Virus record (IMG/VR): IMGVR_UViG_2877285697_000003
Span: 1 to 36,641 of that record
Origin: a virus
Taxonomy: Duplodnaviria; Heunggongvirae; Uroviricota; Caudoviricetes
Direction: 5' to 3' (one strand)
DNA length: 36,641 nucleotides
Below are positions 2,196 through 23,593 of this stretch, piece by piece; positions within the stretch are counted from its first letter, which is position 1, and every line of letters begins with the position of its first letter. The position numbers and the translations under genes were made by a program. The notes under the pieces are model-generated. The model was not told where the DNA came from. It searched no databases and saw nothing but the letters and a program-made list of their open reading frames with translations.

Positions 2196-3364
<1,169 letters not shown>

Positions 3365-3566
3365 CCACTTCACAGTCCTCAATCGCTGGTTCCGTGACGG
3401 AAGGGGGCGTCGTGTTCACGTTATACGCTGGGAGCCTGAAACACAGCGGGTTATTTATCTGCGTGATGGTTATCCATATGAATGTTTCAGCCCGTTGTGG
3501 TTGTTCAGGCGTGATTTTGTGGAGTGTGAAGCGCCGCCGGAATGACGGCACGGTATATACGAAAAA

Positions 3567-3926
3567 TTACGTCGCCTTGCCCAGCGTAAAATCAAAGTGG
3601 ATGTCGTCATACGGGAATGACGTTCCGCGCTCGCTTTTTTCCAGTAAACCGTTGCTGATGAGTGCGGTCACGTCAGTATGCACGCTTTTTACATCACGTC
3701 CAACCAGGGCTGCAATTTTTCGGATGGACATTTCTCCGGCACCAGTCATTGCCATCAGAATGTCCATGCGTTTTGGTGTCAGTACCTTATGCATCATTTG
3801 CCAGTCAGGAAATGAAATAACGTTTTCTCTGGTTGCTTTTGCTCCGGTAGCTGCTTCCTGGAACGCAGACAGCACATCAGCCGTGAAATTATCCATTGAC
3901 TCGATTCGGATTGTTACGGTTCTCAT
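3567..3926 (-). CDS. Winged-helix HTH DNA-binding protein (about 119 aa from internal ATG; ORF track gives 151 aa)
   Basis: Helix-turn-helix-like segment ..EMSIRKIAALVGRDVKSVHTDVTALISNGLLEKSERG..; ATG at 3926 is 1 nt after the stop of the upstream 95-aa ORF (TGAcATG on the minus strand), suggesting a two-gene operon. Confidence 0.55.
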   Translation of the reverse strand: MRTVTIRIESMDNFTADVLSAFQEAATGAKATRENVISFPDWQMMHKVLTPKRMDILMAMTGAGEMSIRKIAALVGRDVKSVHTDVTALISNGLLEKSERGTSFPYDDIHFDFTLGKAT

Positions 3927-3927
3927 G

Positions 3928-4215
3928 TCAGATACCTCTGCGGATGGATTTAACGTCAGCCAGAAAATCAGCGAGCAGTTGTTCAATGGTGACAAAGCTG
4001 GTGCTGACTTCCTGACTACCAATGTGTTTGTGATCGCCTTTACCCCGTTCGTTGTCGTAACGCATCACACACATGCCATCAACGACATAAGCCATGCTGT
4101 ATTTGTAGTTGTGCTGGCTACCCAATACAGCAGGCTCCACTTCCCATATGCGGATTCGTATGTATTCAGATTCACCGAGATGACGGATGAACTGTTTATA
4201 CAGTCTGGATGGCAT
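3928..4215 (-). CDS. Hypothetical 95-aa protein, upstream partner of the HTH gene
   Basis: Complete ORF, stop codon 1 nt before the downstream HTH gene start; no family recognised by eye. Confidence 0.5.
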   Translation of the reverse strand: MPSRLYKQFIRHLGESEYIRIRIWEVEPAVLGSQHNYKYSMAYVVDGMCVMRYDNERGKGDHKHIGSQEVSTSFVTIEQLLADFLADVKSIRRGI

Positions 4216-4383
4216 TTAAAGCTTCCTCTGGTTCTTGTTGTAAACAATAACAACAAGGCTTCGCGTTGTCCACAGCTACAACATTTTGATATTGATTCTG
4301 CAAGTCCGGGACGTTACACTGTTCCGGCACCTTATAAAACGGGTGCCGGGATTTGCACCCCGGAATTGATCAAGGCGATATAC

Positions 4384-4405
4384 GACGCGCCAGCGTCTTT
4401 TTTAT
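4384..4405 (+). terminator. Hairpin plus T-run (GACGCGCCAGCGTC TTTTTTAT) inside the divergent intergenic region
   Basis: GC-rich inverted repeat followed by a 6-T run on the + strand, about 165 bp upstream of the Rha-like gene start; could be an attenuator or small-RNA terminator. Confidence 0.35.
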
Positions 4406-4569
4406 CGTCCACGCTCACGCACGCCAGAATTATGGTGGGCTGGGCAGGGGAGCCGAAAGGCTCGCCGGTTTCCTTGATCGCCGGTAGTGCAAACCCTGTT
4501 CAGTCCGCCACCAGCGAGATTTGCACCTCCGGTGGTGGAAGTATTTCACCGATCAAGGAGGCTGCCATT

Positions 4570-5301
4570 ATGGCTACGATCCCAGTTTCCCCATTCCTCA
4601 AAATCGAAGTCGTCAACGGTAAGGCCGTTACTACATCTCTTTTCGGATATCTCAAACTGTTGCGCCTTGCTGGTGTTCCGGGTTATATTTCTCGCGTTGC
4701 TGTAAATCCAGCAACCGGGCTTCGCATCCCGAAACATCACACAGGGCTGACACGCCATAAGCGTGTTTTTTTGTCTACGTACGTCTATTCAATGGCGGCT
4801 CAGATGGGAGCTTCTTCGGAAGCGCCGGTTTTCCCTTGTGTGTCCGGTAATGCGAATCCTGTCTGGGCTGCCACCAATCATGGTTTCGCATCCGTGGGTG
4901 GTAGCTGTAAAGCACACACACAAGGGGCTGTCACCATGACTACCACCACTACTCACCCATTCCTCAAAATCGAAGTCGTCAACGGCAAGGCCGTTATTTT
5001 CTCTTTGCATGTGGCCTGCTACTTTAAGCGCATGCACCAGAACATCGTCGACAAAATCGAGTATCTGAACTGCTCGCGCGAATTTTTTACCCGCAATTTC
5101 ATACCGGGTACTTACCACATCTATGACGACTCTCTGCGTGGTTATTACATCACCCTTGATGGTCTGATGATGCTTCAGCTTGGGTTAAGTCTGCGCACAA
5201 TGCGGTACTACGAGAGTTGCATTGAAGCGTTCCATGAGGCTGAAACCAGCCTGAATCATACCGCTTTCCGTCGTAATCAATGGGAGGCGCGTCATGTGTA
5301 A
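4570..5301 (+). CDS. Rha-family-like phage regulatory protein (C-terminal half Rha-like; alternative start at 4936)
   Basis: ATG at 4570 preceded by AAGGAGG; residues from 4936 (MTTTTTHPFLKIEVVNGKAVIFSL..YYITLDGLMMLQLGLS..IEAFHEAE) resemble Rha/antirepressor-type N-terminal domains; the motif PFLKIEVVNGKAV is encoded twice by a 39-bp direct repeat. Confidence 0.45.
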   Translation: MATIPVSPFLKIEVVNGKAVTTSLFGYLKLLRLAGVPGYISRVAVNPATGLRIPKHHTGLTRHKRVFLSTYVYSMAAQMGASSEAPVFPCVSGNANPVWAATNHGFASVGGSCKAHTQGAVTMTTTTTHPFLKIEVVNGKAVIFSLHVACYFKRMHQNIVDKIEYLNCSREFFTRNFIPGTYHIYDDSLRGYYITLDGLMMLQLGLSLRTMRYYESCIEAFHEAETSLNHTAFRRNQWEARHV

Positions 5302-5527
5302 TAACCATTATTCAGATACCACTGTCACGGTAATTAAAAACCTGATGGATGCGCTTATTGACATCTCTGTTATTGCAGACAGGGTGCATAAGCACGCCGC
5401 CACTGAAACAGAATATACCGGGGCTCTCGTTCCTCATTCACTGACTGTCATGCAAATTAGCGCCGACCAGGCGCTGGAAACAGCCAGCAAAATGCTCATG
5501 GCTGATGTGCAGGAGGTACGTCCATGA
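5294..5527 (+). CDS. Hypothetical protein (77 aa)
   Basis: ORF whose start overlaps the stop of the upstream gene and whose stop overlaps the next start (ATGA), i.e. translational coupling. Confidence 0.4.
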   Translation: MCNNHYSDTTVTVIKNLMDALIDISVIADRVHKHAATETEYTGALVPHSLTVMQISADQALETASKMLMADVQEVRP

Positions 5528-5748: not shown

Positions 5749-6044
5749 ACTGTTTTCAGTTTGTGTGCGGAAGTGTTTTCGATAATCCGATTCAGCGCCT
5801 GATTATGTTGCGTGTTTGGATGTCGGGGTCTTCAGACGGGGAAGGTGAGAGAGTTATTGAGCACCAAGTGCTTGCCGATTTTTGTTGCTGTTCAAAACAA
5901 GCGATGTTCAGAGAAACCCTGGCCCTGGAAAGGGCGGGACATCTGCATATCCGAAAAATTGCAACGCTTACCATTGATGCAAAAGCCCGACTCCAGCCTG
6001 CCCGTGGTTACACAATTGTCATGCCGCGTAAGGAGGCTGTATGA
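5745..6044 (+). CDS. Hypothetical protein (99 aa, GTG start)
   Basis: GTG start overlapping the upstream stop; ATGA overlap with the next ORF. Confidence 0.4.
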   Translation: MNCFQFVCGSVFDNPIQRLIMLRVWMSGSSDGEGERVIEHQVLADFCCCSKQAMFRETLALERAGHLHIRKIATLTIDAKARLQPARGYTIVMPRKEAV

Positions 6045-6334: not shown

Positions 6335-7365
6335 TGAGGTGTACTGGCAATAGCGGACACTACCATTTGTTCTTTTTTTAAGCAGCCATCTGATGGTATT
6401 TTTCCCTGAAGGCTGCCGGGGAGATATTCCCCAGACGAGAGTGACGACGCTGACGATTGTAGAAAATCTCAATGTATTCCCGTATTACTGAGATGGCTTC
6501 ATCCCGGTTATTAAAACGATAGTGGCTCAGGCTCTCATTTTTCAGCGTTCCCCAGAAGCTTTCCATCGGAGCGTTGTCGTAACAGTTACCTTTACGCGAC
6601 ATTGATGTTTTCAGACCAAACTGCTCCTGTATGACCCGGTAATCGTATGCGCAGTACTGTGAACCTCGATCAGAGTGGTGGATTAGCCCGGCAGGTGGGC
6701 GCTGGCTCCTGAGCGCCATAAACAGGGCTTTACCTGTCAGCTCTTTTGTCATGCGCTCTCCCATGGCGTAGCCGACAATTTCGCACGTATAAACATCTTT
6801 GATGCCAGCGAGGTACAACCATCCCTCCTGTGTGGCAACATACGTCAGGTCCGCCACCCAGACCTGATTTGGTGCTGTAGGAGCGAACGTCTGGTTCAGC
6901 AGATTTGGCGCAACTGGCAGATTGTGGTTCGGGTTCGTAGTCGCTCTGAACTTGCGTTTCTGCTTACAGCGTAGCCTTAGCTCCTTACGAAGACGTGCCA
7001 GTCGGTCACGACCAACGATGATGCCATTCTCTGCCAGCTCCGTCTGGAGCCGCCGGGTTCCATATGTTTCGCGAGTGCGGATATGTGCCACCTTAATCTC
7101 CAGTTTTAGCCGCTCATCACTTTGTTTTCTGTCTGAGGGTTCATGCTGTACCCAGTTGTAATAACCGCTCCTGGATACACCAAATACCTGACACATCGCT
7201 TCAATGGGAAATTGTTGTCGCCATTGTTCGATTAACGCGTATTTTTCAGCGACTCCTGTGCAAAATACGCTGTTGCTTTTTTTAATATATCTCGCTCAAG
7301 GCGAGCTTCATTTAACGCCTTACGCAGTTGCAGAATTTCAGATTCCAGTTCAGCCACCGTGCGGG
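6335..7365 (-). mobile_element. IS600 copy, 5'-truncated (about 1031 of 1264 bp; lacks IRL and first ~57 codons of orfA)
   Basis: Right terminus TGAGGTGTACTGGCAATAGCGG at 6335; identity to the complete copy (16287-17550) ends near 7365 inside orfA, where molR-like sequence begins. Confidence 0.85.
6378..7196 (-). CDS. IS600 orfB transposase (272 aa)
   Basis: Nearly identical to orfB of the complete IS600 at 16689-17507 (two substitutions); IS3-family catalytic core. Confidence 0.9.
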   Translation of the reverse strand: MCQVFGVSRSGYYNWVQHEPSDRKQSDERLKLEIKVAHIRTRETYGTRRLQTELAENGIIVGRDRLARLRKELRLRCKQKRKFRATTNPNHNLPVAPNLLNQTFAPTAPNQVWVADLTYVATQEGWLYLAGIKDVYTCEIVGYAMGERMTKELTGKALFMALRSQRPPAGLIHHSDRGSQYCAYDYRVIQEQFGLKTSMSRKGNCYDNAPMESFWGTLKNESLSHYRFNNRDEAISVIREYIEIFYNRQRRHSRLGNISPAAFREKYHQMAA

Positions 7366-8893
7366 AACGTGATCTGGCTCGCCAGTGGATTTTACAATGG
7401 CCGGAACATACGGCTAGTGCACTTATCCCTCTTGTCTTTACCAAACCCAGCGATAATAGCGAAGCCGCATTACTTGCCCTGCGTTTACTGTACGAACAGG
7501 GACATGGCGAATTGCTACAAACCGTGGCAAACCGCTGGCAGCGTACAGATGTATGGTCTGCCCTGGAGCAGTTGCTTAAACAGGGTCCAATGGACATTTA
7601 CCCGGCACGCATTCCAAAAGCCCCTGATTTCTGGCATCCGGCAATGTGGTCCAGGCCTTGACTTATCACTAATAATCAGCCTGTTACCGGTGACGCTCTG
7701 GAAATTATCGGCGAAATGCTGCGCTTTACCCAGGGGGGACGTTTTTATAGCGGGCTGGAACAACTGAAAACGTTCTGCCAGCCACAAACGCTGGCAGCTT
7801 TTGCCTGGGATCTCTTCACTGCGTGGCAACAAGCTGGTGCCCCCGCAAAAGACAACTGGGCATTTCTGGCGTTAAGTCTCTTTGGTGACGAAAGCACGGC
7901 ACGGGATCTGACGACACAGATCCTCGCCTGGCCACAAGAAGGCAAATCTGCCCGTGCTGTCAGCGGCCTGAACATCCTTACCCTGATGAATAATGATATG
8001 GCGCTGATACAGCTGCATCATATATCGCAACGGGCTAAATCCCGCCCCTTACGTGATAACGCGGCGGAATTTCTTCAGGTGGTCGCAGAAAATCGCGGGC
8101 TAAGCCAGGAAGAGCTAGCGGACAGATTAGTCCCAACCCTGGGCCTTGATGATCCGCAGGCGTTGAGTTTTGATTTTGGTCCCCGGCAGTTTACCGTTCG
8201 CTTCGATGAAAACCTCAACCCGGTTATCTTTGATCAGCAAAACGTTCGCCAGAAAAGCGTTCCCCGGTTGCGCGCCGATGACGATCAACTGAAAGCGCCC
8301 GAGGCACTGGCCCGACTAAAAGGGCTAAAAAAAGATGCTACTCAGGTGAGCAAAAACCTGCTCCCGCGTCTTGAAGCTGCCCTAGGTACCACCCGACGCT
8401 GGTCGCTGGCAGATTTTCATTCTCTGTTTGTTAATCATCCCTTTACCCGTCTGGTTACCCAGCGATTAATATGGGGGGGTTATCCGGCAAATGAACCGCG
8501 TTGTTTACTCAAAGCCTTTCGTGTGGCCGCAGAGGGGGAGTTCTGCAATGCGCAAGATGAGCCAATTGACCTGCCTGCGGACGCTCTGATTGGCATTGCC
8601 TACCCGTTAGAAATGACAGTAGAAATGCGCAGTGAATTTGCACAGCTTTTTGCCGATTACGAAATTATGCCGCCTTTTCGCCAGTTGTCGCGCCGCACGG
8701 TGCTGCTCACACCTGACGAGTCAACCAGTAACAGCCTGACTCGCTGGGAAGGTAAATCCGCTACCGTTGGGCAGCTTATGGGAATGCGATACAAAGGCTG
8801 GGAGTCAGGTTATGAGGACGCATTTGTCTATGACCTGGGTGAGTACCGGCTGGTCCTTAAGTTTTCACCCGGTTTTAACCACTACAATGTTGA
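7366..8893 (+). pseudogene. molR: molR/yehI-family (DUF4132-type) gene fragment: 5' part deleted at IS600, in-frame stop at 7659-7661, 3' end interrupted by IS1
   Basis: Two same-frame ORFs (7359-7661 and 7716-8915) separated by one stop codon; translation recalled as the large WGR/DUF4132 protein encoded next to metG in E. coli; the final codons MLPTY-stop come from the IS1 terminus. Confidence 0.6.
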
Positions 8894-23282: not shown

Positions 23283-23357
<75 letters not shown>

Positions 23358-23360
23358 ATA

Positions 23361-23436
<76 letters not shown>

Positions 23437-23438
23437 GC

Positions 23439-23515
23439 TGGCCCACCACCGAGGACTCGAACCTCGCACCGTCAACTTAGAAGGTTGATGCTCTATCCGG
23501 ATGAGCTAGTGGTGG
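23439..23515 (-). tRNA. tRNA-Arg (anticodon UCU), atypical C1:G72 acceptor end
   Basis: 77 nt: acceptor CCACCAC/GTGGTGG, D-arm GCTC..GAGC, anticodon stem TCAAC/GTTGA with loop CTTCTAA, T-arm CGAGG TTCGAGT CCTCG, discriminator G plus CCA. Confidence 0.65.
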
Positions 23516-23516
23516 T

Positions 23517-23593
23517 TGGTGGCCCTTGCTGGACTTGAACCAGCGACCTGGCGATTATGAGTCGCTCGCTCTGACCAACTGAGCTAAAGGGCC
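23517..23593 (-). tRNA. tRNA with CAU anticodon (Ile2/Met type, ileZ-like of lambdoid phages)
   Basis: 77 nt: acceptor GGCCCTT/AAGGGCC, D-arm GCTCAGTTGGTCAGAGC, anticodon loop CTCATAA, T-loop GGTTCAAGTCC, 3' ACCA. Confidence 0.75.

Follow-up and report, generated by a model that had tools for sequence, protein, structure and literature searches.

Why should a short stretch of coding DNA occur twice, almost letter for letter, within a single open reading frame (ORF) of a viral genome? This question is raised by the IMG/VR virus record IMGVR_UViG_2877285697_000003 (Caudoviricetes), of which positions 1 to 36,641 were analysed and are called the window hereafter, and more precisely by the plus-strand ORF located at 4570-5301, in which a 39-bp sequence, CCATTCCTCAAAATCGAAGTCGTCAACGG(T/C)AAGGCCGTT (the 39-mer), follows each of two ATG codons. 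We consider it likely that the 39-mer is the 5′ coding end of a Rha-like gene, doubled along with tandem and differently keyed antisense-RNA modules, the whole being the best explanation of the locus.

The 39-bp repeat and its surroundings

Exactly two copies of the 39-mer, identical at 38 of 39 positions, are present in the window, both on the plus strand. No further copy was found there with up to three mismatches allowed, and 100 dinucleotide shuffles returned no match. Copy 1 spans 4591-4629 and copy 2 spans 4957-4995, with a spacing of 366 bp (122 codons); the initial annotation had placed them at 4594-4632 and 4958-4996, i.e., 3 and 1 nt away from their true positions. It had rightly recognized that the repeat encodes the same peptide twice in one ORF, after the ATG codons at 4570 and 4936: both copies are in the frame of the ORF and encode PFLKIEVVNGKAV. 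Each begins 21 nt past its ATG and provides codons 8-20, for copy 1 of a truncated first Rha-like gene and for copy 2 of a complete one.

The homology extends well beyond the 39-mer. Positions 4531-4630 and 4897-4996 share 74% identity, the stretches 4327-4632 and 4696-4996 form a diverged tandem pair, and the alignment of 4380-4760 to 4746-5126 delineates a diverged tandem unit of ~366 bp. This unit comprises a putative promoter, an IsrK RNA, a C4 RNA, a ribosome-binding site (RBS) target, an ATG and ~26 codons.

Two antisense RNA modules of different specificity

Each 39-mer is located downstream of a complete module of the P4-CI/P1-C4 type, made of an IsrK/seqA-like RNA, a C4/CI-like RNA and an RBS target. 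These RNAs were searched with Rfam at gathering thresholds (50 bits for isrK, RF01394, and 45 bits for C4, RF01695), and all features of both modules are on the plus strand. In module 1, a putative promoter identified by eye (4292-4320; TTGATT at 4292-4297, a 17-nt spacer and TACACT at 4315-4320) predicts a transcript start at ~4327, the first base of IsrK-1 (4327-4403; 63.4 bits), a homologue of P4 seqA and P1 a1b1. The same promoter sequence is found upstream of IsrK in relatives, and a promoter at the equivalent position has been shown experimentally in Gifsy-1 (PMC4825925). IsrK-1 contains a target of the C4 loop at 4367-4375 (TGATCAAGG, also given as UGAUCAAGG) and, according to a terminator scan, an intrinsic terminator-like hairpin at 4384-4397 followed by a U-tract. 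Next come C4-1 (4428-4515; 83.5 bits), an antisense RNA of the P4 CI/P1 C4 type with the specificity loop UUUCCUUGAUCG at 4469-4480, and a seqC-like target (4550-4572), in which CGATCAAGGAGG at 4550-4561 lies over the Shine-Dalgarno (SD) sequence and precedes the first ATG (4570-4572).

Past the first 39-mer, the tail of the truncated gene (4630-4695) continues in frame as TTSLFGYLKLLRLAGVPGYISR and contains the putative promoter of module 2, assigned by eye only (TTGCGC at 4660-4665, an 18-nt spacer and TATATT at 4684-4689). It is followed by IsrK-2 (4696-4771; 62.2 bits), with its target of the C4-2 loop at 4738-4746 (CACACAGGG) and, in the terminator scan, a terminator-like hairpin at 4749-4767 preceding a U-tract, by C4-2 (4788-4878; 74.2 bits), with the specificity loop UUUUCCCUUGUGUGU at 4829-4843, and by a second seqC-like target (4916-4938), in which ACACACAAGGGG at 4916-4927 covers the SD sequence ahead of the second ATG (4936-4938).

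The C4 fold, tested as a long closing stem around two hairpins, scores over the curated threshold in both copies. Between C4-1 and C4-2, every stem pair is kept, with ~7 double-sided compensatory differences by hand count on the Rfam alignments, and the consensus fold of 16 members including P4 CI (RNAalifold) contains 27 pairs, of which 13 are supported by compensatory changes and none is disrupted. The interval between the two 39-mers is thus occupied by two structured RNA genes and is not ordinary coding sequence.

Pairing was assessed by contiguous-helix search. In module 1, a 12-bp helix joins the C4-1 loop (4469-4480) to CGAUCAAGGAGG at 4550-4561, the SD region of the ATG at 4570, and the part 4472-4480 of this loop makes 9 bp with IsrK-1 at 4367-4375. 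In module 2, a 12-bp helix joins 4832-4843 of the C4-2 loop to 4916-4927, the SD region of the ATG at 4936, and a 9-bp helix joins 4834-4842 to IsrK-2 at 4738-4746. This layout is the seqB-seqA/seqC scheme of P4 or the a'b'-a1b1/a2b2 scheme of P1. The specificity cores differ, with GATCAAGG in module 1 vs CACACAAGGG in module 2; cross-pairs score 6.0 and 5.0 vs 11.0 and 11.5 for the cognate ones, the cross-pairing being confined to the shared SD core. The two antisense specificities of the window are hence different and predicted to be orthogonal. In the family as a whole, 16 loop sequences (~14 distinct specificities) were found; loop and RBS target co-vary in all 16, for which the mean loop:RBS score is 10.2 for cognate and 5.0 for non-cognate combinations. 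RNAduplex, run with whole modules against 150-nt targets, yielded long loop-riddled duplexes and was discarded as uninformative.

A complete Rha-like gene and a truncated first copy

Behind module 2 lies a complete gene (4936-5301, plus strand) for a short Rha-like regulator or putative antirepressor of 121 residues, as judged from Pfam, TIGRFAM, PHROG and tblastn. The Pfam family PF09669 (Phage_pRha) reaches 29.7 bits vs a cut-off of 29.9 over residues 23-103 (145-225 of the 243-residue ORF), and TIGR02681 reaches 40.6 bits vs 45.95. PHROG 995 matches at 1.3e-56 and PHROG 518, labelled 'Rha-like', at 5.7e-15, and tblastn identifies phi80 Rha (1e-7) and antirepressors of Shiga toxin (Stx) phages at 30-37% identity. 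The gene occupies the position of P4 kil and of Gifsy-1 anrP.

The initial annotation had assigned a Rha-type domain to the second copy alone, and a single Rha stretch does score, just under the Pfam cut-off. Its question whether one or two domains would be recognized by Rha hidden Markov models is answered, for the 243-residue ORF, in favour of one: residues 1-122 contain no Pfam match to Rha, the sole match there being Phage_ASH. After copy 1, the homology to the gene fades ~20 nt past the 39-mer (VTTSLF vs VIFSLH) and the next module takes over; the first gene ends ~26 codons after the ATG at 4570 and then joins module 2 in frame. The decayed first domain that had been proposed is therefore not supported: ~26 codons only are of Rha origin, and the remaining 96 codons up to the ATG at 4936 are translated IsrK-2 and C4-2. 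A true protein of two domains, of which the first Rha domain had decayed, would agree with the single uninterrupted 243-codon frame and with its annotation in relatives, by the Prokaryotic Genome Annotation Pipeline (PGAP), as one 'ash family protein' coding sequence (CDS). It is nevertheless very improbable, given that one Rha stretch scores, that the first 'domain' is limited to ~26 codons and that the 96 codons in between fall on two RNA genes whose structures clearly covary. Moreover, no two-domain homologue with both repeats was found, all carriers of both repeats being without a second Rha domain.

Global alignments to six complete gene-to-next-module junctions were used to examine the remnant as an internal deletion of a full gene, its 5′ end joined to its 3′ end; no convincing collinearity was observed beyond ~60 nt, and this origin was rejected.

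Downstream, a plus-strand gene of 77 residues (5294-5527; PHROG 5146, unknown function) has its ATG 5 nt ahead of the stop of the Rha-like gene, with the SD sequence GGGAGG. This coupling is the same signal as the one opening the long frame of the next module in array-bearing relatives.

The 39-mer as the beginning of a conserved gene

Over 93 distinct modules, a column-wise profile gives an identity to the window of 0.81-0.86 in the 39-mer, 0.75-0.89 in the rest of the gene and 0.3-0.7 in the RNA module. The 39-mer, whose codons open the Rha-type domain, is the point where the conserved gene begins and not a feature in its own right; it is conspicuous because a hypervariable specificity module adjoins it on the 5′ side and the truncation junction on the 3′ side. 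Regarding the first ~7 codons (MATIPVSP vs MTTTTTHP), they go with the RBS type. In other loci with a truncated first gene (L053, L044, L050, L092 and L093 in our numbering), the combined mismatches of the two copies to the 39-mer of the window amount to 7-13. The 38/39 identity thus appears specific to the lineage of the window, and the near-perfect match is consistent with mosaic recombination or local gene conversion and not with selection for an exact repeat.

The 39-mer contains a hairpin, AACGGYAAGGCCGUU (-7.1 kcal/mol, z = -2.4), and the sole difference between the two copies falls in its stem with the pair kept (C-G vs U.G). Within and just past copy 2, at 4981-5005, the hairpin AACGGCAAGGCCGTT is followed by ATTTTCTCTT, and the terminator scan flags 4981-4995. 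These properties would fit a 39-mer acting itself as an RNA element, either a translation-sensitive terminator with its U-tract (4981-5005) or an extra antisense target, an explanation which we regard as improbable: copy 1 is without U-tract, contiguous-helix search found no helix of at least 9 bp between the 39-mer and either C4 or IsrK, and the conservation of the 39-mer does not rise above that of the rest of the gene. Besides, the hairpin tracks the NGKAV codons of the gene allele of the window and is absent from the paralogous Rha genes of 183-187 residues found behind the same kind of module. A conserved terminator was thus rejected on account of its marginal energy and of its absence from these paralogues, the hairpin being probably incidental to the NGKAV-VIFSL codons.

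The open frame and the 'Ash' label

The 243-codon frame (4570-5301, plus strand) is composite, running from the first ATG through the remnant, IsrK-2 and C4-2 to the second ATG and the Rha-like gene. It corresponds to the long eta-type ('Ash') frame of module 2. Among 69 distinct regions from IsrK to the ATG, the frame of the downstream gene is stop-free in all 69, the other two frames containing 1-7 and 0-5 stops, and in all 69 distinct modules the gene frame remains open past the IsrK start. It is because the family keeps the frame through the RNA module open that both starts belong to one 243-codon ORF and that the peptide is seen twice.

The Pfam family Phage_ASH (PF10554; cut-off 26 bits) matches the ORF starting at 4570 with 34.8-37.1 bits over residues 65-127, that is, translated IsrK-2/C4-2, and the translation of 4216-4569 with 47 bits. 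In P4, it matches residues 37-161 of Eta with 82 bits, overlying the isrK and C4 matches, and in the 350-residue 'ash family protein' of Escherichia coli N96 it matches two stretches. Since the Phage_ASH residues coincide with IsrK and C4 in the window as well as in P4, 'Ash', as used by Pfam and PGAP, denotes a translated RNA module, the name telling nothing on protein function. In PHROG 995 and 821, the translated RNA region makes up the N-terminal ~100 profile positions, and no NCBIfam model matches the 'Ash' stretches. The 'Ash' calls that coincide with the translation of IsrK and C4 cover 4180-4569 and 4630-4935 in the window and 8330-8702 (minus strand) in P4 (L094). CDSs annotated as 'ash family protein', here the 243-codon ORF and a flagged pseudogene, hence largely translate two well-supported RNA genes, and to take them for ordinary proteins, or for domains in decay, is misleading.

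Upstream, the frame is open over 3358-5301 (647 codons, plus strand), antisense across a toxin-antitoxin pair and overlapping, in another frame, a DUF4222 gene (3369-3545). The pair (3567-4215) is located between the DUF4222 gene and module 1, where related loci start a long eta-type frame; it consists of a TumE-family toxin (3928-4215, minus strand) and of a regulator/antitoxin-like gene on the same strand (3567-4022 as ORF, 3567-3926 according to PGAP). At this position, E. coli N96 has no annotated gene and E. coli A34 another minus-strand pair (DUF6516 and a hypothetical protein). Comparable long open stretches upstream of module 1 are found in L092 (1,014 nt) and in an Stx1 phage (L003, 546 nt).

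Relatives, arrays and the age of the duplication

Some match to 4300-5320 was obtained in 489 of 5,426 complete E. coli genomes, and the whole tandem in 10; one carrier strain is E. coli CFSAN029787 (NZ_CP011416, 26.1-27.2 kb). A second set of relatives was gathered as 80 viral-contig loci via the 121-residue protein, with C4 mapped by an nhmmer profile. The comparison with orthologous loci suggested by the initial annotation reveals that the first copy is present in 8-10 E. coli genomes and in several viral contigs.

The near-perfect 39-bp direct repeat at a fixed spacing could evoke a tandem duplication of recent date, or else a faulty assembly, in the genome of the window. This is scarcely credible: outside the 39-mer the identity drops to ~74%, the specificity loops differ, and the same tandem recurs, with variants, in viral contigs of independent origin as well as in the 10 complete E. 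coli genomes. With such a divergence and different specificities, the duplication is old and heterologous and not recent. The partial tandem duplication of the gene start proposed initially thus has the right structure, yet its extent and nature are to be revised, a whole regulatory unit having been duplicated.

Tandem modules are widespread among relatives, two or three being present in 35 of 92 sources. In most arrays, it is the complete unit (IsrK, C4 and a Rha gene of 120-187 residues) that is repeated, every 653-659 bp. The form with a truncated first gene, with a repeat of 363-369 bp, is that of a minority, namely the window, L001, L007/8/12, L053/58, L044, L050, E. coli N96 and E. coli A34. 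Different loops are combined in 23 of 25 array architectures. A rule that arrays always mix specificities was dropped, owing to the exceptions L005 and L092 and because, with ~14 types, mostly mixed combinations are expected by chance. In L092 (E. coli N96, 2299-3404), the loop GTTCTATGTTGA is common to modules 1 and 3, with a different module between them, and in L005 (reverse complement, 610-1350) two adjacent modules have the same loop, TTTCCGTATGCG.

In every truncated-type locus, the junction …NGKAV-TTSLF(G/E)YLKLLRLAGVPGYISR-IsrK is nearly identical. It is found behind five first-module loop types and ahead of three second modules, the two ATG codons being 366 bp apart and the frame open in every case, and the first modules of these loci are near-identical to modules fronting full genes elsewhere. 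Regarding the complete-unit arrays, all nine distinct junctions have an in-frame ATGA, preceded by an SD sequence, where the long frame of the following module opens; in seven of the nine, no other in-frame ATG comes earlier, and the ATGA overlaps the stop of the upstream gene. The other two junctions are those of L046, with an extra in-frame ATG 15 nt upstream, and of L059, in which an extra stretch comes first and the ATGA follows 190 nt downstream.

A single module with the same gene of 120-121 residues (88-98% identity), and hence the 39-mer once, is found in phiP27, many Stx2 phages and many prophages. One example is module 0 of L009 (MATIPVSPFLKIEVVNGKAVIFSLHV, 120 residues), which has the single-module structure that a deletion between the repeats would give. 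The view that the repeat is a substrate for recombinational deletion is thus plausible, phiP27, the Stx2 phages and L009 matching the expected product, with the reservation that they may equally represent the parental form: such a structure is expected before stacking as well as after deletion.

Comparison with known immunity systems

The closest parallel is phage P4. In its record (minus strand), C4 (8507-8420) and isrK (8692-8615) lie within a 214-residue ORF (8812-8168), and CI RNA and seqA are described inside the long ORF eta, with the nested, in-frame kil starting after CI, while vis and eta are translationally coupled at a stop/start overlap and translation through the module is functional (PMC10111431). 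The window resembles P4 in that isrK and C4 stand in the same order inside one long ORF, the C4 loop has one pairing site upstream and another downstream, a nested in-frame start comes directly after C4, and Pfam Ash covers the translated RNA region. Moreover, the internal start of P4, '…QEAAIMATTLTP', is homologous to '…KEAAIMATIPVSP' in the window ('QEAAIMATT' in P4, 'KEAAIMATI' in the window), and the relatives of the window couple the long frame to the stop of the upstream gene, as described for vis and eta (PMC10111431). In contrast, P4 has one module and its nested kil is not a Rha-domain gene, whereas the window presents two modules of different specificity in one frame, in a lambdoid prophage early operon, with its first nested gene truncated and no eta-type start visible upstream of module 1.

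The isrK-orf45/STnc1160-anrP locus of Gifsy-1 in Salmonella likewise combines, in a lambdoid prophage, IsrK, a C4-like RNA and then an antirepressor-like gene. There, IsrK has its own promoter and terminator, the C4-like RNA is processed, and translation of orf45 across the C4-like STnc1160 is required for expression of the antirepressor-like anrP (PMC4825925). In-frame ATG codons at the C4 5′ ends of the window (4432 and 4792) match the start position of orf45. As differences, Gifsy-1 has a single module in which IsrK is an activator, and the AUGA that terminates orf45 overlaps the start of anrP, whereas the frame of the window continues into the gene: neither 4432-4570 nor 4792-4936 contains a stop, and the AUGA arrangement of Gifsy-1 is thus lacking there.

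In P1 and P7 immI (c4 RNA, icd and ant), small loop differences give heteroimmunity (PMC12197685). As predicted for the window, an antisense RNA processed from the same transcript blocks, in P1/P7 immI and N15 cA, the RBS of the first ORF of the antirepressor operon; these systems differ in that each genome has one module only and the small leader ORF (icd) is separate, and in-frame stacking is not known from them. The 'secondary immunity repressor' RNA cA of N15 is the only match to module 2 in a deposited phage, with 76% identity over 84 nt. Finally, phiP27 L16, Stx2-phage 'hypothetical/antirepressor' genes and E. coli 'ash family protein' CDSs represent the same gene with the same module type, and these single-module relatives have neither remnant nor second 39-mer.

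Among the parts, C4/CI RNAs (P1, P7, P4 and N15), IsrK as a seqA homologue and the lambdoid 'IsrK-C4 immunity systems' are all known (PMC3632133, PMC4825925, PMC12197685). A limited check of full texts turned up no account of modules stacked with differing specificities, nor of a truncated form in frame. The locus therefore represents a known phage immunity system in an uncommon arrangement, not a new system.

A possible chain of RNA locks

At the level of sequence, it can be considered as established that both modules are complete, that their loop/target pairs are orthogonal in predicted pairing, that the truncated first gene is in frame with module 2 and that this frame is open. By analogy with P4, P1 and Gifsy-1, each C4 RNA would be processed from its own leader transcript, in this type of module by RNase P, and would act in trans. 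C4-1 would then occlude the RBS ahead of the ATG at 4570 and C4-2 the one ahead of the ATG at 4936, and/or promote termination, keeping the Rha-like regulator silent. Once C4-1 is relieved, ribosomes starting at the ATG at 4570 would traverse IsrK-2, C4-2 and the second RBS, disrupting their structures and yielding an N-terminally extended product, as Eta in P4. The two locks would be in series, and release of the first would override the second by preventing C4-2-dependent silencing.

Translational chaining looks like a family trait, because the complete-unit arrays link each gene to the frame of the following module by the ATGA; the in-frame fusion of the window is a second way to make the same link. 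We put forward tentatively, and with more doubt than confidence, that IsrK-C4 arrays may be translationally chained RNA locks, operating by ATGA re-initiation or by in-frame fusion, and that the truncated start may be a retained leader ORF.

Quite plausible, if short of probable, is an explanation that keeps the same architecture and takes the ATG at 4570, the 39-mer and the remnant as a neutral relic of recombination: module 1 would matter only for C4-1, which would give immunity against phages of its specificity, and translation from this ATG would have no regulatory role. The arrangement is indeed rare, and the first modules, near-identical to those preceding full genes elsewhere, leave little time for decay. 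All truncated-type loci appear to derive from one ancestral junction, whose in-frame state would be a single event with a ~1-in-3 chance. In the opposite direction, this junction persists although the first module has been exchanged among five loop types and the second among three modules, its RBS, ATG and frame being preserved each time, the ATGA coupling speaks for chaining as a family trait, and translation through the P4 module is functional (PMC10111431).

Several further points weigh against our interpretation of the locus. RNA processing, repression and translational override are all inferred from homology. Both putative promoters are below the threshold of the promoter scan. The truncated arrangement occurs in 8-10 and module 2 (4630-4935) in 8-9 of the 5,426 E. 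coli genomes; module 2 is present in no deposited phage record, apart from the partial match to N15 cA, and scans of species-representative genomes found neither the C4-2 loop nor the remnant junction. In a near-identical E. coli genome, PGAP gives a 214-residue CDS for the second stretch and treats the first one as a pseudogene of the 'ash' type. Lastly, the window has no obvious eta-type start upstream of module 1, which is explained by the minus-strand toxin-antitoxin pair adjoining this module.

Through antirepressor-type genes, which they control, IsrK-C4 modules govern prophage induction; they are found in many Stx-converting and other lambdoid E. coli prophages. If the proposal of chained locks were true, an array would integrate several immunity specificities, for example those of co-resident or superinfecting phages, into one Rha-type antirepressor decision, and the P4 principle that translation overrides RNA immunity would extend to a multi-input cascade. 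Moreover, the co-varying specificities (at least ~14) and their stacking point to a diversifying inter-phage immunity, and the IsrK-C4 loop types constitute a natural set of orthogonal antisense regulators.

Other features of the window

Beyond the locus, an IS3-family element (6337-7620) contains, on the minus strand, orfB (6378-7196) and a likely orfA (7232-7597), and appears to interrupt the ORF starting at 6041, the equivalent of which is an intact hypothetical gene of 331 residues in E. coli CFSAN029787 (L001, 7742-8734). A minus-strand cluster of four transfer RNA genes (23283-23593; Gly-UCC, Thr-UGU, Arg-UCU and Met-CAU) is of the kind usually seen in late regions of lambdoid/Stx-type prophages. 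Towards its 3′ end, the window contains two plus-strand Rfam matches, namely CssrB, the chromosome-encoded Shigella small RNA B, at full length (35105-35284; 230 bits), and IS009 (36041-36244; 129 bits vs a gathering score of 117).

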